The notes: generated by a model from the sequence alone, not told the origin. Counted from the first letter of the stretch, positions 1,284 to 12,457 are shown. The stretch is 64,000 bases of DNA from Candidatus Limnocylindrales bacterium (GCA_036558545.1 DATBFJ010000027.1:946-64945), one strand, 5' to 3'. Translations and numbers: made by a program.

Positions 1284-3974
1284 CTAGAAAAGGGCCAGCT
1301 GCTCCGCTTCGCGTTCGATCTCCGGGTCAAGTCCGAGTAACGGGCCGAGCTCGTCGAGGTTCGCTTCCTCCCGGGCGACGAGCCGGCGCAGGTGATCGGA
1401 CTTGAGGATATGCCAGTTCTGCTCATCCAGCGCCCGCGCCAAGAGCGGCGAGCGGGCAATCTTGAATCGGACCAGCTCCGTGCGCTCCGGCGGGATCACG
1501 AGGAAGCGCACGACAGAGTCGTCGGATGGTATGCGCGGGCCGCGGCGCAACAGTGCGTCAGTGAGCATGGCCGTCCATTCGACCTCGAATAGGAACGTCG
1601 CCTTGCCGCGCAGGTACCAGATGCAGTCGAGCGACTCGAACGTCGCTGCATCACCCGCGGCGATAAGTGGCAGATATGCGCGCTGTTCCTCCTCGCTCAT
1701 AAGGTCCGCGACCGTGCCACCGCGGAATGAGCGCCGGCTTTCGCGCTCTGACACGTGAGCCCGCAGTCCCAGACGATGGCCGTAGTCGACGAGGAGGCCG
1801 CACATCTCCCCGTGCTCCGCATGGCGGGCCGTCAGCTCGTCCTGCGTGCGCAGCTGGATCGAGCTCGAGGTGGGATCCCGATACGAGTCGAGAACGGCGC
1901 GGACGAGCTCGGCGTCCGGCGTGTCGTGGCCCCGGAACATGCCCGCAACGCGCTGGAAATAGGTCTCCTCGTCGATGCCCTGGCTGGTCGAGAGCAGTCC
2001 GTAAGCGGCCCATTCGAGTCGGTCGGAAAGCGGCGGACGGGCCTGCGCCAGATCCGCGTCGCTGCGCAGCCACCAACGGCCGTCGTCGATCTCGATCAGC
2101 CGCGCATGATCCGGCCGCCGCAGCTCACCCATCACGATCTCCATCAACAGCCGGACGTGGTCGGTCGCAGACGCGCTGCCGAGCGCCCATCCGGGAACGT
2201 CTGATGGTTCCGCGCCGGTCTCTTCCTCGCTCTCCGGAGCTGCGTCGTCGGTTTCATCCCCTGCCTGCTCCGCGTCGGTGGCTTGCTCCGTGGCGAACGC
2301 ACTCGCCGCTTCAGACTCACCGAATGTCTGCGTCGCGACCAGGTGGCGAAGGTGACCGAGCCGATCGAGTCCCACGAGGACCTCACCGAGCAGTCGTTCC
2401 CCGCTGGCCGGTTCGCCGCGAGCCTGGAGCACGCTCACGGCAACCTGGGTTACGGCCTGCTCAACGTCCGACAGGGCGAACGGCTGCGTGGGATCCGCTG
2501 TGTTCAGGTCGGCCAGCTCCGAGTGCTGATCGCCGTCTTCTTCGGCCGGCCCGACGTTGAACTCGAGCACGCCTCCGATCTGGTTGCCCGACTCGGCGAG
2601 CACGGCATTGGTCAGGCGCAGCCCGGCACCTACCCCGCCGAGCACGCCGGCGACGAGGCCCGAGGCACCGCCCCGGTCGAGGATGACGACGGCCTTGGCA
2701 TCGCGCGCGAGCACGGGCCTGACGGCGAGCAGCGAGCGCCGCAGGGCAGTCGCCTCCCGGCCGCGATCGTTTGATGGCGGCGCGCCGAAGACCCATTCGA
2801 GCGGCAGCTCTGTCGTCGCGTCACGGCCGAGGACAAACGCAGTAGCGAGATAGGCGAACGAGATGTTCTCCACGGACCAGCGGATGGGCGGCTGGGTCAG
2901 CACGAGTCGGACTCGCGAGCGCGGATCGAGCCGGCCGGGCAGAACCGGCCGGCGCGACCAGAACATCGGCTCGTTGCCACTGACATAGGCGGGGCCGGTG
3001 CGCAGCACGACATTGGCTGTGCCGTCAATCAGCGTCTCGATGTCGTCGCCCGGCCGTGGCTGAAAGGTCGCGGTGCCGTCCTCGACGCGGGTGATGAACG
3101 AGCGCACCTCGCGACAGCCTTCCTCGAAGGCGAGCCACGGATTGTGTTCGCGCCATTGCTTCGAAACAGGAGGCTGGACGTGGCCGTGCCGAATGCGCAG
3201 GGCAGCAACGCGCCCGGGATAGCCGTTGAGCTTGCTCGACGGAAGCAGCGCATGAACCAGACCCAGCTTCAAGCCGGCACTTACGGCGGGTGCCTTGAGC
3301 TGCTTATCGAGCTGTCCGACGATCTCGTCGAGCGCGACGAGCGTCCGTGGTGTGAACAGGTCGAGGATCTCGTCCGGCAGATCCTTGCCGTTGTCGAGAA
3401 CCGGAAAGCGGCCGCGGAGGTTCTGACGCGCCGACTTGGCGTTTGCCTTGCGCGCCAGCTTGACGTCATCTTCATCGACGGGGGCGATGCGGGGATCGCT
3501 GCTGCGAGCCTGTTCGCGACAGAAAGAGCAACGGAAGACCTTACGAGACGGCGCTTCGGCGCCGACCTCCCAGATGTATTCCTGCACGACAACTGGCCGA
3601 CCGCACGTGGGGCAGCGTGACGTGAAGCTCTGCTCGATCAGCCGCTTCAGCTCGACATCACCGCGCGGATGAGTGGCGATCGCGGACATGCCCGCGTCGA
3701 AATGGCGCAGGTCCGGTGGCCTGAGCACGATCTCGGCCAGCAGCCGGGTCAATGCCGTCGACTCGAGCGCGTAGACCCGGCGCAATGCGGCAATCGAGTT
3801 GCGCGCGATCCAGCCACCGCGACCGTGGGTGTCGATGACCACGTCGCCGGGCGCGGTGCGCGCCGCCAGCTCCGCCGCCACGACGTTGTCCGCGGGCGGC
3901 GGCGCGAAACGCTCGAAGGCGGGTAGTTGCGGCCCCTGGTTTGGTCGGATCAGCGACGAGAGAGGGTCCGCCAT
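1284..3974 (-). CDS. Large hypothetical protein (896 aa): methyltransferase-like N-terminus, Cys4 zinc ribbon, acidic linker, PD-(D/E)xK-like C-terminal region
   Basis: Long ORF with protein-like composition. VVIDTHGRGGWIARNSI resembles SAM motif I (DPFxGSGTT) of N6/N4 DNA methylases. CPTCG..(26 aa)..CSFC forms a zinc ribbon. LVLTQPPIRW sits where (D/N/S)PP(Y/F/W) is expected. C-terminal LDCIWYLRGKATFLFEVEWT resembles a nuclease D..ExE/K core. Function is motif-level inference only. Confidence 0.6.
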   Translation of the reverse strand: MADPLSSLIRPNQGPQLPAFERFAPPPADNVVAAELAARTAPGDVVIDTHGRGGWIARNSIAALRRVYALESTALTRLLAEIVLRPPDLRHFDAGMSAIATHPRGDVELKRLIEQSFTSRCPTCGRPVVVQEYIWEVGAEAPSRKVFRCSFCREQARSSDPRIAPVDEDDVKLARKANAKSARQNLRGRFPVLDNGKDLPDEILDLFTPRTLVALDEIVGQLDKQLKAPAVSAGLKLGLVHALLPSSKLNGYPGRVAALRIRHGHVQPPVSKQWREHNPWLAFEEGCREVRSFITRVEDGTATFQPRPGDDIETLIDGTANVVLRTGPAYVSGNEPMFWSRRPVLPGRLDPRSRVRLVLTQPPIRWSVENISFAYLATAFVLGRDATTELPLEWVFGAPPSNDRGREATALRRSLLAVRPVLARDAKAVVILDRGGASGLVAGVLGGVGAGLRLTNAVLAESGNQIGGVLEFNVGPAEEDGDQHSELADLNTADPTQPFALSDVEQAVTQVAVSVLQARGEPASGERLLGEVLVGLDRLGHLRHLVATQTFGESEAASAFATEQATDAEQAGDETDDAAPESEEETGAEPSDVPGWALGSASATDHVRLLMEIVMGELRRPDHARLIEIDDGRWWLRSDADLAQARPPLSDRLEWAAYGLLSTSQGIDEETYFQRVAGMFRGHDTPDAELVRAVLDSYRDPTSSSIQLRTQDELTARHAEHGEMCGLLVDYGHRLGLRAHVSERESRRSFRGGTVADLMSEEEQRAYLPLIAAGDAATFESLDCIWYLRGKATFLFEVEWTAMLTDALLRRGPRIPSDDSVVRFLVIPPERTELVRFKIARSPLLARALDEQNWHILKSDHLRRLVAREEANLDELGPLLGLDPEIEREAEQLALF

Positions 3975-4271
3975 GAATGGCGAGTCTACCTATGCGGTCG
4001 AGGCCAGTAAGTGCCAGTCAGGGATGGCGGCCCCGATCCCCAGGGAGTGGGGCCGCCATCAACCAGATTGTTCCTTTTGGGCGGCACGACCGGAACGAAG
4101 CGAAGGTTAGGCCCGGTCGTTCCCGCTTCGGAGCTCGGCCGCCGCCAAATAGCGACGAAACCATGCGCGCGGCGCCCGAATCTCACCGAATTCTGCTAGC
4201 GCGTACCGCCTGAACCGGATCAAACAATTTCGTTGATATCGGCGAGAAGTCGATGCGAGAAGGAGGAGGCG

Positions 4272-5150
4272 CTACTCCTCGTCCTCATCGGCACGATCGT
4301 CATCGACGTCTTCTTCGGCAATGAATGCCTCATCGGAGGTGAGGTCCTCCGGCACGACGTGGCCGATGTCCTCGATCTCCTCGTCCTCGTCGTCGAGCTC
4401 GAGCTCCTCCTCGAGGTCCATCTCCTCCCGGACGAGCGTGCCCTTGGTGTATGGCCGCAGATCACTGACCTTGGCCGCCGTCGGGAACGACACCTTGCCG
4501 TAGTTGGCCGGGTCCTGGTACGTCTCGCGAATGATGATCCGCACGTCACGCTCGCCGATCGAGGTGACGCCTGCGGTGTACTTGTTACCGTCGGCGATCA
4601 GCTTCAGCAGCCGGGCGGCGACGCGCGGCTCGACATAGCCAATATGCCAGCCGTTGGACATCGCCTTGAGGCGTGGCCCGTCTGACGATAGCTCGACCGC
4701 GTCGCCGGGGTTGACCTGGGCAAGCTGCCTGGGATCGGCCAGGTCGATCAGGTGCGCAAAACCGGTCTTGCCCGTCTCCTCGACGAAGATCGCGACCGGC
4801 GCCTTATCCGTCTTCTTGGCGGCGATCGTCTTCTTGCCTGCCTCGGCGAGAAGCATGCGCAGGCGCGAGATGTTGCGCTCGGCAATACGGTTGGTCGGGT
4901 CGAGAGCCAGCGCGGCCTGGTAGTGCTCGCGCGCCTGGCCGAGCTCGCCCATCTCCCAATAGGACTTGGCTAGCCGGTTCTCGGCCTCCGAATCAGCGCC
5001 AAGTTCCAGGATGCGCTTGTTGAGGTCGGCAGCCTGCTCCCAATCGGCGTCCGTGGCCGCCGCAATGGCCTGCTCGGTCAGCTGCCTCTTGAGCCGGGTC
5101 GCGTTGATGGCTGGCTGCGCCTGGTTGCCGTCGGTAAGTGAAAAGCTCAT
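4272..5150 (-). CDS. TPR repeat protein with possible HIRAN-like middle domain and poly-acidic C-terminal tail
   Basis: The ORF has a TPR-like segment (AENRLAKSYWEMGELGQAREHYQAALALDPTN). A central block NPGDAVELSSDG..NGWHIGYVEPRVAARLLKLIADGNKYTAGV resembles HIRAN. The last ~50 aa are D/E-rich. Confidence 0.6.
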   Translation of the reverse strand: MSFSLTDGNQAQPAINATRLKRQLTEQAIAAATDADWEQAADLNKRILELGADSEAENRLAKSYWEMGELGQAREHYQAALALDPTNRIAERNISRLRMLLAEAGKKTIAAKKTDKAPVAIFVEETGKTGFAHLIDLADPRQLAQVNPGDAVELSSDGPRLKAMSNGWHIGYVEPRVAARLLKLIADGNKYTAGVTSIGERDVRIIIRETYQDPANYGKVSFPTAAKVSDLRPYTKGTLVREEMDLEEELELDDEDEEIEDIGHVVPEDLTSDEAFIAEEDVDDDRADEDEE

Positions 5151-5229
5151 GTTGTGCTACGTGTGTCCTTCGCCTGTGAGATGTCCGTGTCTCCGGGCAC
5201 GCGCTGGCGTACCGCGGGACCTACGGAAA

Positions 5230-5477
5230 AACGGGAAGTAGGTGACTAACTATACTCACCAAGGTCCCCTCGTGCGACCAGCGCGTTTGCGTGTGCCCGA
5301 GCCGGACTGCCTAAATCGCCTGGAGGAAGCTCTCCAATCGTGGACAAAGGTTGCCGTAGTCGCGGCGCACAACGCGCCGCAGGCTCAACAACGGCCCGTC
5401 CCGTCCACTAGGGAGGTGCTCGCTCAGTAGAGCGTCGAGCGCCTCTTAACGGGACGGCCACCCGTCGAGGTATCGAA
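5230..5477 (+). promoter_or_regulatory. Structured 5' leader of the mgtE-like/NRAMP operon; candidate Mg2+ (M-box-like) riboswitch
   Basis: 327-nt non-coding gap. Nested perfect helices are CCGTCCCGT 5396-5404 / ACGGGACGG 5449-5457, enclosing GAGGTGCTCG 5413-5422 / CGAGCGCCTC 5436-5445. A further hairpin is GCGGCGC 5362-5368 / GCGCCGC 5374-5380. Short M-box-like strings occur in the expected order: GTAGGTGA 5238, CTGCCTAAA 5307, CAAAG 5345, GCTCAACA 5383, GTGCT 5416. GAGG SD lies at 5467-5470. Not validated by a covariance model. Confidence 0.3.
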
Positions 5478-6743
5478 ATGCTCTACCTGAGTCAGGTCAT
5501 CGGCCGGCCCGTTCGCGACATGAGCGGGGAACCGATCGGCAAAGTCGCGGATCTGATCGTCGCTGTCGGCGAGAAGTACCCGCCTGTCACCGGGCTGGTA
5601 ATCCGCACTGACGGACGCCAGATCTTTCTGCCGTGGACGTCGGTCGAATCAGTAGACGTCGAGGGCGCGCGGCTCAAGACATCCACGCTCGACATCAACA
5701 AGTTTCGACAGCGCGATAACGAGATCCTGCTCAAGGCGGATCTGATGGACAAGCAGATCGTCGACATCGACGGCCGTCGCGTGGTGCGCGTGAATGACGT
5801 CAGCCTCGACGTCGTGACCGGGTCGCTGCGCCTGGTGGCCGTGGACGTCGGCGCGGCCGGCATCGCGCGCCGCCTTGGTCTCGAGGGTCCGTATCGGACG
5901 ATCGCGCGCAATTTCAGGCTGCACACCGGCGAGCGCTTTATTGACTGGGAGGACGTCGATCCACTTGAGACGTCCATTGCAGCGGTGCGCCTGCGCGTCC
6001 CGCATAAGGGTCTTGCCTCTCTTCATCCGTCGGACCTCGCCACGATCATCGATCAGCTGACTCCGCGCGACCGCGCAGGAGTGCTTGCCTCGCTCGACGA
6101 CGAGCAGGTGGCCGATGCCATCGAGGAGATGGAGCCGGAGACGCAGGTCGAAGTGCTCGAGGATCTCGAGCCGGACCGCGCGGCGGACATCCTCGAGGAG
6201 ATGAGCCCCGACGATGCCGCCGACCTTGTCGCCGATCTCTCCGAGACCGCCCGCGAAGAGATCCTCTCACTCATGGAGAAGGACGAGGCCGAGGAGGTCC
6301 AGGAACTCCTGGGCTATCCCGAGGAGTCGGCCGGCGGGATCATGACCACCGAGTACATCGCCCTGCCCGCGAACCTCACGGCGGCCCAGTCCATCGACCG
6401 ACTGCGCGAGCTCGAACCCGACGCGGAGACGATCTACTACGTGTACGTCGTGGACAAGGACGAATCACTCGTGGGTGTCCTGTCGCTCCGCGACTTGATC
6501 GTGGCAAAGCCTGAAACAGTGATATCCGGTGTGATGATCAAAGAGCCGATCACGGTCAGCGTGCTCGACGATCAGGACCACGTCGCCGGCGTAATCGCCC
6601 GCTACAACCTGCTGGCGGTGCCCGTTGTCGATGACGCCGGGCACCTCGAGGGCATCGTCACGGTTGACGACGCGCTCGATGCAGTGGCGCCTGAGGCGAG
6701 CCGCCTGTGGCATCCCCGGCGCAGCGTCCGACCGGTGCGATGA
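5478..6743 (+). CDS. Soluble MgtE-type regulatory protein: PRC-barrel + MgtE N-domain + CBS pair, no transmembrane domain
   Basis: N-terminal LSQVIGRPVRDMSGEPIGKVADLIV is PRC-barrel-like. The acidic helical repeat HPSDLATIIDQLTPRDRAGVLASLDDEQVADAIEEMEPETQVEVLEDLEPDRAADILEEMSPDDAADLVADL is typical of MgtE_N. Two CBS motifs follow (IMTTEYIALP..., VMIKEPITVS...). The ORF ends without the MgtE membrane domain. Confidence 0.85.
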   Translation: MLYLSQVIGRPVRDMSGEPIGKVADLIVAVGEKYPPVTGLVIRTDGRQIFLPWTSVESVDVEGARLKTSTLDINKFRQRDNEILLKADLMDKQIVDIDGRRVVRVNDVSLDVVTGSLRLVAVDVGAAGIARRLGLEGPYRTIARNFRLHTGERFIDWEDVDPLETSIAAVRLRVPHKGLASLHPSDLATIIDQLTPRDRAGVLASLDDEQVADAIEEMEPETQVEVLEDLEPDRAADILEEMSPDDAADLVADLSETAREEILSLMEKDEAEEVQELLGYPEESAGGIMTTEYIALPANLTAAQSIDRLRELEPDAETIYYVYVVDKDESLVGVLSLRDLIVAKPETVISGVMIKEPITVSVLDDQDHVAGVIARYNLLAVPVVDDAGHLEGIVTVDDALDAVAPEASRLWHPRRSVRPVR

Positions 6744-8032
6744 GCGCGGCGGCGCCGGTCCCAGCGGCGACCGCAACACCGAGTGTGTCGCGCCGCCGCC
6801 TCGGCCGGCGAGCGCGTTTCCTGGCGACGATGGCCGTCCTCGGCCCGGGCATCGTCAGCGGCTTTGCCGACAACGACGCGGGCGGCATCACGACCTACTC
6901 GCTGGCGGGCGCGCGCTTTGGCTATCAACTTCTGTGGGTCCTGCTCGTCACGCAGCTGGCGCTGCTCGTGACCCAGGAGATCGGCGCGCGCATGGGCCTT
7001 GCCACAGGGCAGGGACTCACTGGCCTGATTCGAGAGCGATTCGGCCTGCGCTGGGCCGCCCTCGCGGCGATCACGATGATCATCGCCAACCTGGGCTCGA
7101 CCGTGTCGGAGTTCGCCGGCATTGCCGCCGCCCTGTCACTGTTCGGGGTGCCCGCTGCACTGTCCGCGGTGCTGGCCGCAGTAGCCGTGATGGCGCTCAT
7201 CGGAGCGGGATCGTTCAGCCGTGTCCAGTACGGCTTCGTCGCGATCGGCGTGCTCGTATCGGGCGCGTATCTGTTCTCTGCTGTCCTGGCGAATCCCAAC
7301 TGGGGCCAGGCGCTGCACAGCCTGTTCATCCCGCAGGGGGCGTTCGATGGCGCATACATGCTCGCCGTGGTCGGCGTCGTTGGCACGACCATCACGCCGT
7401 GGGGTCAGCAGTTCATTCAGGCGTACGTCGTCGACAAGCGGCTTCGGCCCGAGGAGATGAACGCCGAGAGGATCGACGTGCTAATCGGCGTCTTCATCAC
7501 CAACGTCGTCGGTGCTTTCATCGTCATCGCCTGTGCGGCGACGCTGTACGCCAGCGGCATCTTCAACATCACCAGTGCCGCCGACGCCGCACAGGCCCTC
7601 GAGCCGATCGCCGGCAACGTCGCTGCCCTGTTTTTCGCCATCGGCCTGCTGGCCGCGTCCCTGTTGGGCCTCGGCGTGGTGCCGCTGGCGAGTGCATATA
7701 CCGCGGCCGAGGTATTCGGCTGGGAGCAGGGGGTGGGCTGGCGCGTCCGCGAGGCACCGGCGTTCTACGGTCTGATCGCGTTCTTCATCGGCTTTGCCGC
7801 GCTGTTCATGCTCATCCCGGGGCTGCCGCTGATCCAGGTCATGTTCGGCGCGCAGGTGCTCAATGGCCTGCTGCTGCCGATAATCCTCGTGTTCGTGATG
7901 CTCCTCGTCGGCGACCGCAAGATCATGGGCAACCTCGTGAGCGGCCGCATCAACCTTTTCCTTGGCTGGGGCGTGACGATCCTGCTGATCGTCATGTCGC
8001 TCGTGCTGGTGGGGACCTCGTTCAGCTCCTGA
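6740..8032 (+). CDS. NRAMP/SLC11 family transporter with non-canonical metal site (NRMT-like, predicted Mg2+)
   Basis: GPGIVSGFADNDAGGITTYSLAGARFGYQLLWVLL matches NRAMP TM1, but DPGN is replaced by DAGG (6875-6886). TM6 reads GTTITPW (7382-7402) instead of A..MPH. About 11 hydrophobic segments. The ORF track starts at 6707; the ATG at 6740 overlaps the upstream stop (ATGA), which favours 6740. Confidence 0.85.
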   Translation: MSAAAPVPAATATPSVSRRRLGRRARFLATMAVLGPGIVSGFADNDAGGITTYSLAGARFGYQLLWVLLVTQLALLVTQEIGARMGLATGQGLTGLIRERFGLRWAALAAITMIIANLGSTVSEFAGIAAALSLFGVPAALSAVLAAVAVMALIGAGSFSRVQYGFVAIGVLVSGAYLFSAVLANPNWGQALHSLFIPQGAFDGAYMLAVVGVVGTTITPWGQQFIQAYVVDKRLRPEEMNAERIDVLIGVFITNVVGAFIVIACAATLYASGIFNITSAADAAQALEPIAGNVAALFFAIGLLAASLLGLGVVPLASAYTAAEVFGWEQGVGWRVREAPAFYGLIAFFIGFAALFMLIPGLPLIQVMFGAQVLNGLLLPIILVFVMLLVGDRKIMGNLVSGRINLFLGWGVTILLIVMSLVLVGTSFSS

Positions 8033-8653
8033 TCACAGAGTGGGCCGCTGCTCCCGCTGCCACTTACGCAGAATGTCCCAGCCTTCACGCAAGAGCACGA
8101 TGGCAATCACGATCGAGGCGACGGCGTCTGCCCACCACAGTCCAAATGATGGTCCGAACTGGCCCGCAACCAGGGCGATCAGCGCGAGGGCGGCACCGGC
8201 GGCGGTAAGCAGCGCGTCCTTGCGCAGCGCGTTGCTCTCGAGACGGTCCGCAACGCGTCGCTTGGCAAAGGCCAGCGGCGGCAGGACGACAATCGAGAAG
8301 CCGAGCAGGACTATTTGAGCGGTGCTCGATTCGGCCTCGCCGTGAGTCAGCAGGGCATGGGCCGCGCCAATGATCAGAGCCGTGGCGGAGATAACCAGCA
8401 CGATCCCGATCAACCTCTCGGCAAGCATTTCGGCTCGTTCACCGTGATGGACACTGCTGCTTTCAAGCGAAAAGCGCCACACGAGAACGACCGACGCGGT
8501 CGCGTCGATGGCCGAGTCGAGGCCAAAGCCAATGAGCGACAGGCTGCCGCTGCCAAGGCCCAGCGCCAGGGCGATCACTGCGACTGCCGCTCCCTCGAGT
8601 ACGCTGATTCCCGACAACCACCGCGCTATGCGGACATCCCGAGCGCGATTCAT
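8033..8653 (-). CDS. Cation diffusion facilitator (CDF) family cation efflux protein, membrane domain only
   Basis: SGSLSLIGFGLDSAIDATASVVLVW and WWADAVASIVIAIVLLREG are typical CDF TM2/TM5 metal-site helices. The start is taken at ATG 8653, which overlaps the GNAT stop (ATGA). The ORF-track start at 8728 is probably an upstream extension. Confidence 0.75.
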   Translation of the reverse strand: MNRARDVRIARWLSGISVLEGAAVAVIALALGLGSGSLSLIGFGLDSAIDATASVVLVWRFSLESSSVHHGERAEMLAERLIGIVLVISATALIIGAAHALLTHGEAESSTAQIVLLGFSIVVLPPLAFAKRRVADRLESNALRKDALLTAAGAALALIALVAGQFGPSFGLWWADAVASIVIAIVLLREGWDILRKWQREQRPTL

Positions 8654-9162
8654 GCGGTCTCGAACAGCAGCCAGTGGTCTGGAGGAATGTGCGGCTTGTC
8701 CGGCACCGGCCGCCACTCCTCGCGCCACGCGGCACCGACCATGTCCGAAGCGACGCGCTTCCAGAACTCAGGAGCGCCGGGGTTGTCGTCCTGGAACGCG
8801 ATCTCCCACGCACCGGGATAACGGTCGATGAGCACGCGCGCGACGAACTCGCCCACGCCGCGACGGCGCACGGCGCGCACCACGAAGAACTCTCCGATGG
8901 TGCGCTTGCCACCCTCCCAGTTCGTGCCGACGAAGGCGAATCCTGCTGGCGCACCGTCATACGTGATCAGGAAGCCCGGCCAATTGACGGCATCGTCACG
9001 AAACCACTGAAGATGGCCCAGCTTGAAAAGGCCGTGCTCGTTGGGCATCGAACCACGCGACTGCGACAGGTCGTGGACGTACAGCTGCCACAGCCGATCA
9101 ATGACGGGCGCGTCATCGTCCGTCAGCTCGCGCAGGCCAACCGTGGCGGCTGTGGCCTCCAT
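8650..9162 (-). CDS. GNAT family N-acetyltransferase
   Basis: FVVRAVRRRGVGEFVARVLI is acetyl-CoA motif A (R/Q-x-x-G-x-G/A). The start is taken at ATG 9162, which overlaps the polX stop (ATGA). Confidence 0.75.
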   Translation of the reverse strand: MEATAATVGLRELTDDDAPVIDRLWQLYVHDLSQSRGSMPNEHGLFKLGHLQWFRDDAVNWPGFLITYDGAPAGFAFVGTNWEGGKRTIGEFFVVRAVRRRGVGEFVARVLIDRYPGAWEIAFQDDNPGAPEFWKRVASDMVGAAWREEWRPVPDKPHIPPDHWLLFETA

Positions 9163-11081
9163 CACCGGTGGTCGGTGACCTGCGTCAGGAAGTCCCCCAG
9201 GGGCAACGTGTTGAGCACGTTGCCCGGCTCGAGCCACGCGCGCCGCGCCTGTGAGATGCCCCAGTCGAGGTTGTCGAACTCGACCAGGTAGTGGGCGTCC
9301 GAGTCGACAACGAAGCGATTCCCGGCATCGAGCGCGGCGCGCGCACGCCGGTCATCAAGGTCAAGACGCTCGGTTTCGCCGTTGAGCTCGAGCACCGTGC
9401 GCGTCTCGGCTGCCTCGCGATAGAAGGCATCCCAGTCGAGATCGAGATCGTCGCGGATGCCGATCTTGCGGCCGGACGGGTGGGCAATGATGTCGACATT
9501 CGGATTGCGCAGCGCCGTTCGATAACGCTCCATGAGCTGCGCGCGCGGCTGACGTCGACCCACGTGCAACGAGCACACGACGACATCGAAGCTGGCGAGC
9601 AGAGCGTCCTCGTAGTCGAGCCGGCCGTCCACGGTGATCTCGAGTTCGCAGCCGTGCAGCAGTCGGAAATCCAGGCCGTCTCGGGCAAACGATTCGTTGA
9701 GCTCGCCGATTACGCGCCGTTCCTGCTCGACACGCTGCGGGGTGAGCCCGTTGGCGATGGTCAGGCTCTGCGTGTGGTCGGTCAGCACCTGGTAATGCAG
9801 CCCACGCTGCCGCGCTTCCGCTGCCATCTGCTCGATGGTGAAATGACCGTCCGACCAATCGGAATGGGTGTGACAGTCGCCCTGGAGATCGGACCGCGTG
9901 ACCAGATTCGGAAGCTTTCCAGCTTTGGCCGCCTCGATCTCGCCGCGGTCCTCGCGCAGCTCCGGATCGATGAACGGCAGCCCGAGGAATTCGTAGACCT
10001 CCCGCTCGGTCGCGAAGGTGACCCGCTTGGCCTCGTCCTGGACGCTGGTGAAGCCATGCTCCGACAGTGACCAGCCGCGATCGCGGGCGATCTCGCGCAA
10101 TCTGACGTTGTGCGCGGCTGACCCAGTGAAATGAATGAGGTACGTTCCGGCGACGTCGGAGGGCATCGTCATCAGGTCAATCTGCGGGCCGCGGGTCATC
10201 TGCACCGACGTGCGTGTGCCACCTGTCGCGCGACCACCGTTTCCGACCCGCTCGATCCACGGTGAGTGGTGAAGCTTGTCGATCGCCGCGGCGGGATCGT
10301 CGGTTTCGACGAGCAGGTCGATGTCGGCGATCGTCTCGCGCCGCCGACGGTAGGAGCCAGCCGGGATGATCGCTTTCACGCCTGGCGCGTTGCGCAGCGA
10401 GCCCGTGACGAGATCGATGACCTCCTGCGCCTGGCCCAGGCGCATCCGCTTGGGCGGCCGCGCGCGCAGCGCCTTCAACCCCTCGAGCAGGCGCGCTTCA
10501 GTCTTTGCGCTGATGCCCTTGACCTCGCGCAACTGGCCCGCGCGCGCGGCCGCCTCCAGGGCATCGAGAGAGTCGATGCCCGCCTGGCGGTACAGGTCGC
10601 CGGCAGTGCGCGGGCCCAGGCCGGGCACCTGCAGAAGTGTCACCACGCTCGGCGGCACATCGCGGCGAAGCCGTTCGTGGTAGCGCAGCCTGCCCGTGTC
10701 CGCTAGCTCCTCGAGCTTCTCGTCGATGGCCTTGCCAACGCCGGGCAGCCTGGGCGGCCTGCCCTCGCGGTAGGCCCGGGCGATGTCCAGCGGTGAATGA
10801 GCGATCGACTCGGCTGCCCGGCGGTACGCACCTACCTTGAACGGCAGGTCGCCCTGGATCTCGAGCATGTCGCCGATCTCGTAGAAGATGCGCGCCAGCT
10901 CATCGTTGCCGAGCAACGGCACGGAGTCTCCACGGGAGAAACGTGGGCGACTCTCGTAAGGCGGCTCGTCTGGCGCGAGCGCGGCCTCCTGGAGCCCGGG
11001 GGCGGGAGTGTCGGCTTCGGTGCGTGTCGGTATATCGACGCGCTTGGGCCTGGGCGGGGCGGATCGTCGAGCCGGGCTCAT
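9162..11081 (-). CDS. polX: Family X DNA polymerase with C-terminal PHP phosphoesterase domain (PolX)
   Basis: N-terminal HhH region (NDELARIFYEIGDMLEIQGDLPFKVGAYRRAAESI, LLQVPGLGPRTAGDLY). Nucleotidyltransferase core GSYRRRRETIADIDLLV. PHP motifs DCHTHSDWSDG and VVDSDAH. The exact start is uncertain: it lies only 26 nt from the divergent ugd. Confidence 0.85.
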   Translation of the reverse strand: MSPARRSAPPRPKRVDIPTRTEADTPAPGLQEAALAPDEPPYESRPRFSRGDSVPLLGNDELARIFYEIGDMLEIQGDLPFKVGAYRRAAESIAHSPLDIARAYREGRPPRLPGVGKAIDEKLEELADTGRLRYHERLRRDVPPSVVTLLQVPGLGPRTAGDLYRQAGIDSLDALEAAARAGQLREVKGISAKTEARLLEGLKALRARPPKRMRLGQAQEVIDLVTGSLRNAPGVKAIIPAGSYRRRRETIADIDLLVETDDPAAAIDKLHHSPWIERVGNGGRATGGTRTSVQMTRGPQIDLMTMPSDVAGTYLIHFTGSAAHNVRLREIARDRGWSLSEHGFTSVQDEAKRVTFATEREVYEFLGLPFIDPELREDRGEIEAAKAGKLPNLVTRSDLQGDCHTHSDWSDGHFTIEQMAAEARQRGLHYQVLTDHTQSLTIANGLTPQRVEQERRVIGELNESFARDGLDFRLLHGCELEITVDGRLDYEDALLASFDVVVCSLHVGRRQPRAQLMERYRTALRNPNVDIIAHPSGRKIGIRDDLDLDWDAFYREAAETRTVLELNGETERLDLDDRRARAALDAGNRFVVDSDAHYLVEFDNLDWGISQARRAWLEPGNVLNTLPLGDFLTQVTDHR

Positions 11082-11107
11082 CTACCCGCAGCGTAAAGGT
11101 CGCCCGT

Positions 11108-12457
11108 ATGATCCGCCCAATGGAGGAACGACAGCGGCCGCTCGACCTGGCAATCCTCGGGGCGGGATACGTGGGCCTCGTCACGGCCGCCTGCCTTGCG
11201 AAGCTTGGTTTCAACGTCCGCTGCATCGACCGAGACACGAAGCGCATCGAAGGACTGCAAAGGGGCGTGATGCCGTTCTTCGAGCCCGGCCTCGAGGATG
11301 CCGTCCACGACGGGGCGTCGAGCGGGCGCCTGCGCTTCTCCAGCGAAGCCTCATTCAGCCATTGGGCGGACGCAGTCTTCCTGTGCATTGGCACGCTCGA
11401 CGAGCGGGGCAACTGGAGTGCTCAGGACGTTGAGCGCGCACTGGCCGGCGTTGTCGCCGACAGCGAGGCACCCAGGACGATCATCGTGCGCAGCACGTTG
11501 ATGCCGACCGAAACGGCGCGGATGGCGCGTATCGCGGCAGAGGTCGATGCATCCGTCGAGATCGCGATCAATCCGGAGTTCACCCGCCAGGGAAATGCTG
11601 TTGGCGACTTCCTGCGACCCGACCGGGTTGTTGTCGGGCTGACGAAGCCAGAATCCGAGTCGAGAGCACTGCCTCTGTTGCAGCGCGTCTACATGAACGT
11701 GCGCGCACCCATCCTCGTAACCGACGCGGCTTCGGCGGAGCTGATCAAGACCGGCTCGAACGTATTCCTGGGCCTGAAGGCTGGCTTCGCCAATGAGCTC
11801 GCCCGCCTCGCCGCCGCCACCGGTGCAGACGTCGCCACGGTCGTGGACGGAATTGGCCTGGACACTCGCATCGGACGTACCTATCTGACACCGGGCCCTG
11901 GCTTCGGCGGCTCGTGTCTGCCGTCCCAGACGCGGTCTCTGCCGGATGTTTCGGCCGCCCAGGGCGTCGACACGCCGATCATCGACTCAGTCGCGAGGTC
12001 CAATGCCCAGCAGGCGCAATGGATAGCGGCCCAGGTCGAGCGGGAGGTTGGAACTCTGCGGGGAAAGCAGATCGCCGTTTTCGGACTCGCGTTCAAGGCG
12101 GGCACGGATGACGTCCGTGAGTCTCCCGCGCTCTCCCTCGCGAGGGCGCTGGCAGCGAAGGGCGCCCAGCTGGCCGGTCACGATCCGCTGGCTGAAGCGG
12201 CCGCGCAAGCGGTGCTCGCGCGCGAAGGCGTGGCGATCCGGCTCGGCGAAAAGGACATTGACGCTGCGGCGGGAGCCGACGCGATCGTCATAGCAACCGA
12301 ATGGCCCGAGTACGCGAATCTCGATTGGACTTCGCTTGCCGCGGCAATGCCGGGCCGCGCTGTTGTCGACGCCCGGCGTGTGGTCGATCAGGAGGCTGCG
12401 GCGGACGCCGGCTTCAAGGTGGTCGTCCTCGGTCGCGTCATCGCACAGCCTGACTGA
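11108..12457 (+). CDS. ugd: UDP-glucose 6-dehydrogenase
   Basis: Rossmann motif LAILGAGYVGLVTAACLA, catalytic-Cys block GFGGSCLPSQ, C-terminal UDP-binding domain (FGLAFKAGTDDVRESPA). The start is moved to ATG 11108; the ORF-track N-terminus is an Arg-rich extension overlapping polX. Confidence 0.9.
   Translation: MIRPMEERQRPLDLAILGAGYVGLVTAACLAKLGFNVRCIDRDTKRIEGLQRGVMPFFEPGLEDAVHDGASSGRLRFSSEASFSHWADAVFLCIGTLDERGNWSAQDVERALAGVVADSEAPRTIIVRSTLMPTETARMARIAAEVDASVEIAINPEFTRQGNAVGDFLRPDRVVVGLTKPESESRALPLLQRVYMNVRAPILVTDAASAELIKTGSNVFLGLKAGFANELARLAAATGADVATVVDGIGLDTRIGRTYLTPGPGFGGSCLPSQTRSLPDVSAAQGVDTPIIDSVARSNAQQAQWIAAQVEREVGTLRGKQIAVFGLAFKAGTDDVRESPALSLARALAAKGAQLAGHDPLAEAAAQAVLAREGVAIRLGEKDIDAAAGADAIVIATEWPEYANLDWTSLAAAMPGRAVVDARRVVDQEAAADAGFKVVVLGRVIAQPD

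Follow-up and report, generated by a model that had tools for sequence, protein, structure and literature searches.

A pore-less MgtE cytosolic module encoded beside an NRMT-clade transporter in Candidatus Limnocylindrales, a possible feedback brake on magnesium import

What would the cytosolic half of a magnesium channel do when it is encoded without its pore, beside a transporter of an unrelated fold? The question is raised by a locus of Candidatus Limnocylindrales bacterium (Chloroflexota, uncultured; GCA_036558545.1 DATBFJ010000027.1:946-64945), analysed here within a stretch of 64,000 nucleotides (nt) that we call the window. Two co-oriented open reading frames (ORFs), 5478-6743 (+, 421 amino acids, aa) and 6740-8032 (+, 430 aa from ATG), encode a soluble protein, hereafter the partner, and a transporter of the NRAMP (SLC11) family, assigned below to the NRAMP-related Mg2+ transporters (NRMTs). 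With NRMTs, the known routes by which bacteria take up Mg2+ number four. Homology with EleNRMT indicates that NRMTs are uncoupled uniporters, so that a cell would be expected to require some means of stopping import when Mg2+ is replete. An earlier note, made from the DNA sequence, believed the two-component arrangement to be uncharacterised; in this it was mistaken. Passages of Shin et al. 2014 (PLoS Genet, PMC4072509), to which all our statements on that paper refer, name the NrmT group, report that most NrmT genes adjoin a gene for an MgtE cytoplasmic domain ('mgtE-nramp operons'), and propose cytoplasmic feedback regulation or a chaperone role for its product. The gene arrangement is therefore not new but published and widespread, and the window locus adds a Limnocylindrales example. 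No later paper characterising the partner was found in the literature searched, and the structural paper on EleNRMT (Ramanadane et al. 2022, PMC8806188) contains no discussion of the adjacent gene. Knowledge of the partner gene goes back to 2014; its effect on the NRMT is the question raised here, and one that can be tested directly.

The transporter matches the Pfam Nramp family (PF01566, 8.7e-84) over profile positions 1-355 of 357. When all PDB sequences were searched, its best match was EleNRMT (7qia; 322 bits, E = 7e-95, 43% identity over ~400 residues). Mn2+ NRAMP structures reached at most 107 bits, with E-values of ~1e-29 or weaker (1.2e-29 at best), and the NCBIfam MntH and Nramp subfamily models scored far under their cutoffs. 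HMMER alignment placed D46, G49, T216, T219 and W221 on EleNRMT D55, G58, T224, A227 and W229, and Q372 on Q379. On DraNramp, D46-A-G-G49 falls on D56-P-G-N59, and T216, T219 and W221 fall on A227, M230 and H232, with Trp in place of the NRAMP His. The DAGG and TTITPW motifs are therefore where the earlier note had read them, in transmembrane (TM) helices 1 and 6; the substitutions it pointed to occupy metal-site positions, and the transporter lies nearer to EleNRMT than to the Mn2+ NRAMPs, as it had supposed. A DxxG-TxxA/T signature defines the NRMT clade (Ramanadane et al. 2022), and, judged by sequence, the transporter is an NRMT-clade SLC11 protein that carries it.

A search of 1.84 billion cluster representatives with the transporter returned 643 clusters at E<=1e-30. 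Among 87 aligned matches of 395-580 aa out of these 643 NRMT-like clusters, DAGG + TxxT-x-W and DAGG + TxxA-x-W were among the commonest signatures. Thr at the Met position is accordingly a normal NRMT variant, and close NRMT clusters have TxxT as often as TxxA; in 59 partnered loci, the TM6 motif was TxxT in 18 and TxxA in 33. In EleNRMT, T224 is needed for interaction with Mg2+, and D55 and Q379 are needed for transport, which mutation of Q379 strongly impaired; the protein carries Mg2+ and Mn2+, not Ca2+, without proton coupling (Ramanadane et al. 2022). By homology, Mg2+ transport by the window protein would likewise be uncoupled from H+. Its physiological ion may be Mg2+ rather than Mn2+.

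The partner carries two PRC-barrel stretches (PF05239, 1.5e-11), an MgtE_N domain (4.6e-28) and two CBS stretches (2.1e-16). It has no Pfam match to the MgtE membrane domain PF01769, the TIGR00400 mgtE model covers it only at profile positions 27-256 of 450 and under cutoff, and no segment resembles a TM helix (maximum 19-residue hydropathy 1.56), so the protein is not an MgtE channel. Its C-terminal 240 residues match the MgtE cytosolic domains 2oux and 2yvy at E ~1e-45 in a search of PDB sequences. An AlphaFold2 (AF2) model with a mean predicted local distance difference test (pLDDT) of 83.5 has barrels at aa 1-66 and 82-156, a helical N domain and a CBS pair; its alignment included five divergent homologs, as a shallow alignment alone modelled residues 72-177 poorly. 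In Foldseek, the N+CBS part superposed on 2yvy, the Mg2+-bound cytosolic domain of MgtE, with a TM-score of 0.86, a root-mean-square deviation of 2.3 Å and 41% identity. The partner has a net charge of -38, with about -27 in the MgtE_N domain. The composition that the earlier note gave it, a PRC-barrel, an MgtE N domain and a CBS pair with no pore, is thus borne out by Pfam, the PDB search and Foldseek, and we assign the partner as the cytosolic N+CBS module of MgtE in full. Its architecture is shared by more than 7,900 homologs of ~420 aa. The closest (75-94% identity) are all ~420 aa long and, where the source is named, come from Candidatus Limnocylindrales (Chloroflexota).

The Mg2+ sites determined by experiment in Thermus thermophilus MgtE (TtMgtE; PMC5882242) were mapped on an alignment of the window protein and 56 partners from other phyla. 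The Mg4 ligands D91 and D247 correspond to D245 and D398 in the window protein (Asp in 48/57 and 50/57 sequences), the Mg6 ligand D95 to D249 (Asp in 56/57), the Mg7 ligand E59 to D213 (Glu or Asp in 44/57) and the Mg5 ligand D250 to D401 (Asp or Glu in 37/57). At the other two sites mapped, E258 of Mg2 is replaced by R409 (Lys or Arg in 38/57, a gap in 12) and D259 of Mg3 by L410 (Lys or Arg in 21/57, a gap in 21). The residues of the inter-domain Mg2+ clamp are thus kept and the plug-helix sites Mg2 and Mg3, which couple to the pore, are gone. From the ATP site of MgtE (PMC5529423), the phosphate and ribose ligands Y170, R187 and D188 are also kept.

The earlier note had recorded the PRC-barrel and given it no role. 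No other part of the partner proves as well conserved as the tandem PRC-barrel, which belongs to the architecture kept in every phylum sampled. Residues invariant across phyla lie mostly in the second barrel (Q93, D96, R104, V105, N106, D107, G128 and R131). Reduced partners beside NRMTs keep the PRC part, as PRC-only or PRC+MgtE_N-only variants. In two Actinomycetota loci with DPAG-type sites (L034 ~4106-4918 and L064 ~4165-5001; loci are numbered with the prefix L), PRC is joined to a degenerate MgtE_N with no CBS; in two others (L057 6253-6804 and L073 4647-5228), a PRC-barrel-only ORF of ~200 aa lies directly downstream of the NRMT.

The tails that follow the CBS pair are mostly basic, with a net charge of at least +2 in 73 of 97 distinct tails, among which RLPRLF motifs or KKRRK runs are frequent. 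Seven of the 97 contain a TM-like hydrophobic stretch, which is a single C-terminal TM helix in six and a 192-aa MgtE-like membrane extension in one (L155). Single predicted C-terminal TM helices (for example TVLKAVGIALAAVLFLALYTLVLFQIMGF) occur in gut Eggerthellaceae-type partners (L083 3645-4997, L124, L128, L146, L148 and L151), among them the partner beside the closest relative of EleNRMT. The L155 gene (~3001-4812 of metagenome contig NPID01000053.1) encodes 603 aa, with PRC, MgtE_N and CBS followed by ~190 hydrophobic residues. It lies directly upstream of an NRMT gene, and its hydrophobic C-terminus has a weak match to PF01769 (E = 3.4e-4, under cutoff); it could represent a transitional form that links an MgtE channel with a soluble partner. 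Overall, the region that follows the CBS pair suggests a membrane location, and the tail types look like stages of a reduction by which a PRC-bearing MgtE channel became a soluble sensor. In the literature searched, we found no mention of a PRC-barrel together with MgtE, nor of the conserved PRC tandem, the retained clamp acids, or the replacement of the plug sites by a basic tail or membrane anchor.

Adjacency of the two genes was scored in both directions. In the forward scan, an NRMT profile was run against one genome per GTDB species, which gave 80 loci from Chloroflexota, Actinomycetota, Acidobacteriota, Nitrospirota, Syntrophales, Patescibacteria, Methanocellaceae, Nanoarchaeota and others, and partner arrangements were scored by domain hidden Markov models built from the family. 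A full PRC+MgtE_N+CBS gene was found at 57/80 species-level loci, archaea included: directly upstream on the same strand in 50, upstream but more distant in three, directly downstream on the same strand in three, and convergent in one. Two further loci have a partner truncated by the contig end, two have PRC+MgtE_N only, two have the ~200-aa PRC-barrel-only ORF, and 17 have no partner, three of these with <1.3 kb of upstream sequence. In the reverse scan, a partner profile built from 13 sequences was run against metagenome contigs, and an NRMT gene lay directly downstream at 64/80 loci, on the same strand in 63; eight of the 80 end too early to judge, leaving 64/72 informative loci. The recurrence of the pair in 57/80 and 64/80 independently sampled loci exceeds chance, and the conservation and co-occurrence that the earlier note had proposed to check are therefore present.

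The pair also holds together where its surroundings change. A relative 77% identical, on a 1.9-Mb contig, has the same two genes and every other neighbour different; since flanking genes vary between relatives, the gene pair is a conserved unit. Next to the gene for a 92%-identical relative of EleNRMT, a PRC+MgtE_N+CBS gene encoding 450 aa ends 3 nt upstream. In 72 of 98 related pairs, a candidate NRMT start overlaps the partner stop or lies <=30 nt from it, and the 4-nt stop/start overlap of the window locus is possible in 17 of the 98. In that locus, the overlap is read directly from the sequence, as the earlier note had it. A GTG at 6707 was considered as the start of the transporter gene and is unlikely; ATG 6740 is backed by the counterpart in L001, whose NRMT, 81% identical and called at 431 aa, begins 9 nt past the partner stop. 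The two genes probably form a co-transcribed and translationally coupled module. In two Limnocylindrales/Chloroflexota loci (L004 1585-4133 and L010 4384-6955), a single partner gene precedes a tandem of two NRMT genes, both with 64-67% identity to that of the window.

We propose the following mechanism. The NRMT, a LeuT-fold protein, would take up largely hydrated Mg2+, and also Mn2+, at an enlarged site formed by D46, G49, T216, T219 and Q372, and would import the ion down the membrane potential with no proton coupling, as EleNRMT does. The partner would descend from an MgtE with PRC-barrels and serve as a sensor in the cytosol, having lost the pore and kept the acidic residues through which Mg2+ bridges the N and CBS domains. 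Its PRC-barrel tandem would dock it on the cytoplasmic face of the transporter, and its basic tail would hold it at the membrane. At high cytosolic Mg2+, the N domain would clamp on the CBS pair, as in closed MgtE, and the clamped partner would block or lock the NRMT, providing negative feedback on an otherwise unbraked uniporter. At low Mg2+, repulsion inside the highly acidic N domain would free the brake. The docking would resemble that of the photosynthetic reaction-centre H subunit, whose PRC-barrel sits on the L/M membrane subunits. Both the binding of the partner to the NRMT and the direction of regulation are conjectural steps here, and the feedback-brake mechanism as a whole seems to us evenly poised between right and wrong. 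A broader proposal, which we put forward tentatively and at somewhat short of an even chance, is that the partner is a portable trans-acting gate, in which the PRC tandem docks and the MgtE_N-CBS clamp gates a transporter of unrelated fold, and which would have arisen by stepwise loss of the pore, from membrane domain to TM anchor to basic tail.

Several observations weigh against a brake of this kind. One Mg5 ligand is an Asn: TtMgtE D226 corresponds to N377, and Asn stands there in 39/57 sequences. The adenine-pocket residues N203 and F227 of MgtE are I354 and L378 in the partner, and because these are changed, ATP sensing as in TtMgtE is not claimed. Fourteen NRMT loci with >=1.3 kb of upstream sequence have no partner nearby, and eight of the 80 partner loci have no NRMT within 1.4-3 kb downstream. 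No partner-NRMT fusion was found among 10 NRAMP-family matches of 496-571 aa, in which Pfam found no extra domain, and PF01566 was absent among the listed homologs of the accessory protein. Twenty loci have a partner with >=65% identity to that of the window, and in six of them the NRMT is <50% identical, with the signature GNDAGG/TTITPY where the motif was read; partner and NRMT lineages are partly decoupled and have been re-assorted, which speaks against an interface strongly specific to lineage. CabNRMT and EleNRMT both function with no partner present, in vivo and in liposomes (PMC4072509; Ramanadane et al. 2022), the Clostridium transporters gave Mg2+ rescue without the partner gene, and co-expression of the Acidobacterium capsulatum partner in B. 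subtilis had no detectable effect on rescue (PMC4072509). That null is compatible with a brake, from which no improvement of rescue would be expected, but it lends the idea no support.

Some details of these comparisons are recorded here. Partners 70-75% identical to that of the window occur both in L062, L078, L086, L087, L091 and L093 and in L003-L011 and L088-L094, and the NRMT classes of the two sets differ. The NRMTs paired with such partners are either 59-69% identical (DNDAGG/TTITPWG) or 44-48% identical, and GNDAGG/TTITPY was read in the latter class in L062 and L078. L157 and L158 pair a 44% partner with a 59-61% NRMT. L005 (3609-6230), in which the first 346 residues of the partner and the NRMT share one frame and the second CBS lies in another, was examined as a fusion and rejected; it is a frameshift, probably a long-read assembly error.

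The alternative that survives best is that the pair serves mainly Mn2+ uptake, with the NRMT importing Mn2+ in vivo and the partner sensing Mn2+ or some other signal. In the one pair that has been assayed, A. capsulatum Acp2976/2977, the NrmT, encoded downstream of a gene resembling MgtE, restored an Mn2+-uptake mutant fully and an Mg2+ mutant weakly and only at millimolar Mg2+, acting chiefly as an importer of Mn2+ (PMC4072509); this better rescue of Mn2+ deficiency also counts against the brake as drawn above. EleNRMT carries Mn2+ besides Mg2+, and the M-box riboswitch, which marks the Mg2+-proven Clostridium genes and is present at only a subset of the loci of Shin et al. (PMC4072509), is missing from the window and from 13 related loci. 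The partnered Acidobacteriaceae loci L037, L055, L071 and L079 have the same DAGG/TxxA as EleNRMT, so the signature probably does not separate Mg2+ from Mn2+ substrates. On the other side, the residue specifically needed by EleNRMT for interaction with Mg2+, T224, is kept as T216, and the partner retains the residues with which MgtE binds millimolar Mg2+. Cytosolic free Mn2+ lies far below the range that such low-affinity carboxylate sites could sense. We think Mn2+ uptake unlikely as the main role. The chances that we give to the brake and to Mn2+ as the substrate partly overlap and are not mutually exclusive.

A second alternative makes the partner, instead of a brake, a chaperone or buffer for metal, or else a positive activator, one receiving the ion at the cytoplasmic exit or aiding the transport cycle. 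The chaperone role is one of the two named by Shin et al. (PMC4072509), the partner is extremely acidic, and the overlapping stop and start codons imply stoichiometric co-expression. Yet NRMTs transport without the partner in vivo and in liposomes, co-expression brought no gain in rescue, as the passages of Shin et al. report, and conservation falls on the residues of the regulatory clamp of MgtE. These points make a chaperone or activator improbable. Mg2+ is abundant, moreover, and we know of no need for Mg2+ chaperones.

Still less probable, in our view, is that the partner acts on another target, such as the ribosome or RNA through RimM-like PRC-barrels or a different membrane protein, and is merely co-expressed with the NRMT. 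PRC-barrels do occur in the ribosome-maturation factor RimM, to which the partner has a weak match; eight partner genes stand without a nearby NRMT, and the two lineages are partly decoupled. At the eight NRMT-less loci, lists of ORFs judged by eye, with no family search, contained nothing noticeably NRAMP- or MgtE-like, and the few neighbours recognisable by eye looked mutually unrelated. Against another target stand the very strong adjacency in both directions across phyla amid otherwise variable neighbours, partner tails that are in some cases membrane-anchored or bear the MgtE TM region, and PRC-only variants that still adjoin NRMTs. The idea that the upstream ORF is a decaying MgtE fragment with no function of its own, which its likeness to a truncated MgtE under the TIGR00400 cutoff might suggest, is effectively refuted by the retained architecture of the >7,900 homologs of ~420 aa, residues invariant across phyla, an intact ORF at 57/80 loci and a confidently predicted fold.

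If a sensor of MgtE type does regulate a LeuT-fold carrier in trans, as the feedback brake would have it, this would add a new kind of post-translational control over metal import, and it would explain the pore-less 'magnesium transporter' annotations found in thousands of genomes. If the gate reading is also true, it would be a rare documented reuse of a channel's regulatory domain to control a carrier. The comparison offers targets for mutagenesis: Q93, R104, N106, D107 and R131 in the PRC part, the acids D245, D249 and D398, and the basic C-terminal tail.

The coordinates of the locus are collected in Table 1. Rfam found no family at the gathering threshold on either strand of the window (no tRNA, rRNA or riboswitch). 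Upstream of the pair, no M-box (RF00380) was found at the gathering threshold or at E<=10, and a search of 4900-5700 at E<=10 gave two matches only, at chance level. No M-box was found in 13 related loci either. A sigma-70-like consensus was not found in the upstream region, and the window holds no further copy of either gene.

Table 1. Features of the partner-NRMT locus, in window coordinates.
Feature	Coordinates	Strand	Basis
Upstream intergenic region, presumed promoter/leader of a two-gene operon	5151..5477	+	Rfam, promoter search
Gene for soluble accessory protein (partner): PRC-barrel x2 + MgtE_N + CBS pair + basic tail	5478..6743	+	ORF, Pfam, PDB search, AF2, Foldseek
First PRC-barrel, aa 2-66	5481..5675	+	Best PF05239 stretch (Pfam); AF2 beta-strands, pLDDT 85-90
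Second PRC-like barrel with helical insert, aa 82-156	5721..5945	+	Second PRC stretch, invariant columns
MgtE_N domain, aa 182-283	6021..6326	+	Pfam, site mapping
CBS pair, aa 287-405	6336..6692	+	Pfam
Basic C-terminal tail EASRLWHPRRSVRPVR, net +4, where MgtE has the plug helix	6693..6740	+	Site alignment, charge
ATGA: TGA of the accessory gene overlapping ATG of the transporter gene	6740..6743	+	Read from sequence
NRMT-type SLC11/NRAMP transporter gene, 430 aa	6740..8032	+	Pfam, PDB search
TM1 metal-site motif D46-A-G-G49 (DxxG; NRAMP DPGN)	6875..6886	+	Alignment to EleNRMT, DraNramp
TM6 metal-site motif T216-T-I-T219-P-W221 (TxxT; NRAMP AxxMPH)	7385..7402	+	Alignment to EleNRMT, DraNramp
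Q372, counterpart of EleNRMT Q379 on helix 10	7853..7855	+	Alignment

Downstream, a short gene of the cation diffusion facilitator (CDF) family (8033-8728, -, 231 aa) converges on the NRMT gene without a spacer, its stop beginning one base after the NRMT stop, so that a divalent-cation exporter stands tail to tail with an importer. Only the membrane part of the CDF family is represented (PF01545 positions 9-192 of 198), with no match to the C-terminal cytoplasmic domain. Because it is absent from the loci of relatives, this gene was rejected as a third component. The divergent upstream neighbour (4272-5150, -, 292 aa) has one TPR repeat match and a highly acidic C-terminal tail (…EEELELDDEDEEIEDIG…DDDRADEDEE), and is not found beside the pair in L001. 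Beyond it lies an 896-aa ORF (1284-3974, -) with no Pfam match at E<=0.01 and CxxC pairs (CPTCGRP ... CSFCRE) near its N-terminus. On the other side follow a GNAT acetyltransferase (8650-9237, -), a family-X DNA polymerase with a PHP domain (9162-11081, -) and a UDP-glucose/GDP-mannose dehydrogenase (10943-12457, +), ordinary genes with no link to metal transport.

Among known systems, EleNRMT (PDB 7QIA, 7QIC, 7QJI and 7QJJ) shares with the window transporter the residues D55, G58, T224 and Q379 (D46, G49, T216 and Q372 here) and the Trp that replaces the NRAMP His. It differs in having A227 at the NRAMP Met position where the window protein has T219, both within DxxG-TxxA/T. EleNRMT was studied without its partner, and Eggerthella-type partners end in a TM helix, whereas the window partner ends in a short basic tail. 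The Mn2+/Fe2+ NRAMPs (DraNramp, ScaDMT and EcoDMT) have in common with the transporter the Pfam family, the LeuT fold and the TM1 Asp. They are distant from it (1e-29 or weaker), with DPGN where it has DAGG, AxxMPH where it has TxxTPW, and a proton-coupling His that it has lost; to our knowledge, no MgtE-like partner has been reported for these canonical NRAMPs.

The operons of Shin et al. (C. acetobutylicum Ca_c0685; A. capsulatum Acp2976/2977) resemble the window locus in having an MgtE-cytoplasmic-domain gene directly upstream of an Nramp-related gene. The C. acetobutylicum partner is split into two genes, whereas that of the window is one, and the window locus is without the M-box that a subset of their loci has. 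Those authors call the partner a homolog of MgtE's N-terminal cytoplasmic domain, and the passages of their paper on which we draw do not mention the PRC-barrel tandem, which is present here and at 57/80 loci. Finally, TtMgtE (PDB 2YVX, 2YVY and 2ZY9) has the same fold of N domain and CBS pair as the partner, together with the carboxylates of Mg4, Mg6, Mg7 and half of Mg5. Unlike the partner, MgtE has a five-helix TM pore (PF01769) with its D432 site; the partner adds two N-terminal PRC-barrels, has a basic tail where MgtE has the plug-helix sites Mg2 and Mg3, and has lost the adenine-pocket N203 and F227. Whereas the MgtE cytosolic domains act on their own pore, regulation by the partner would act in trans, on a transporter of unrelated fold.

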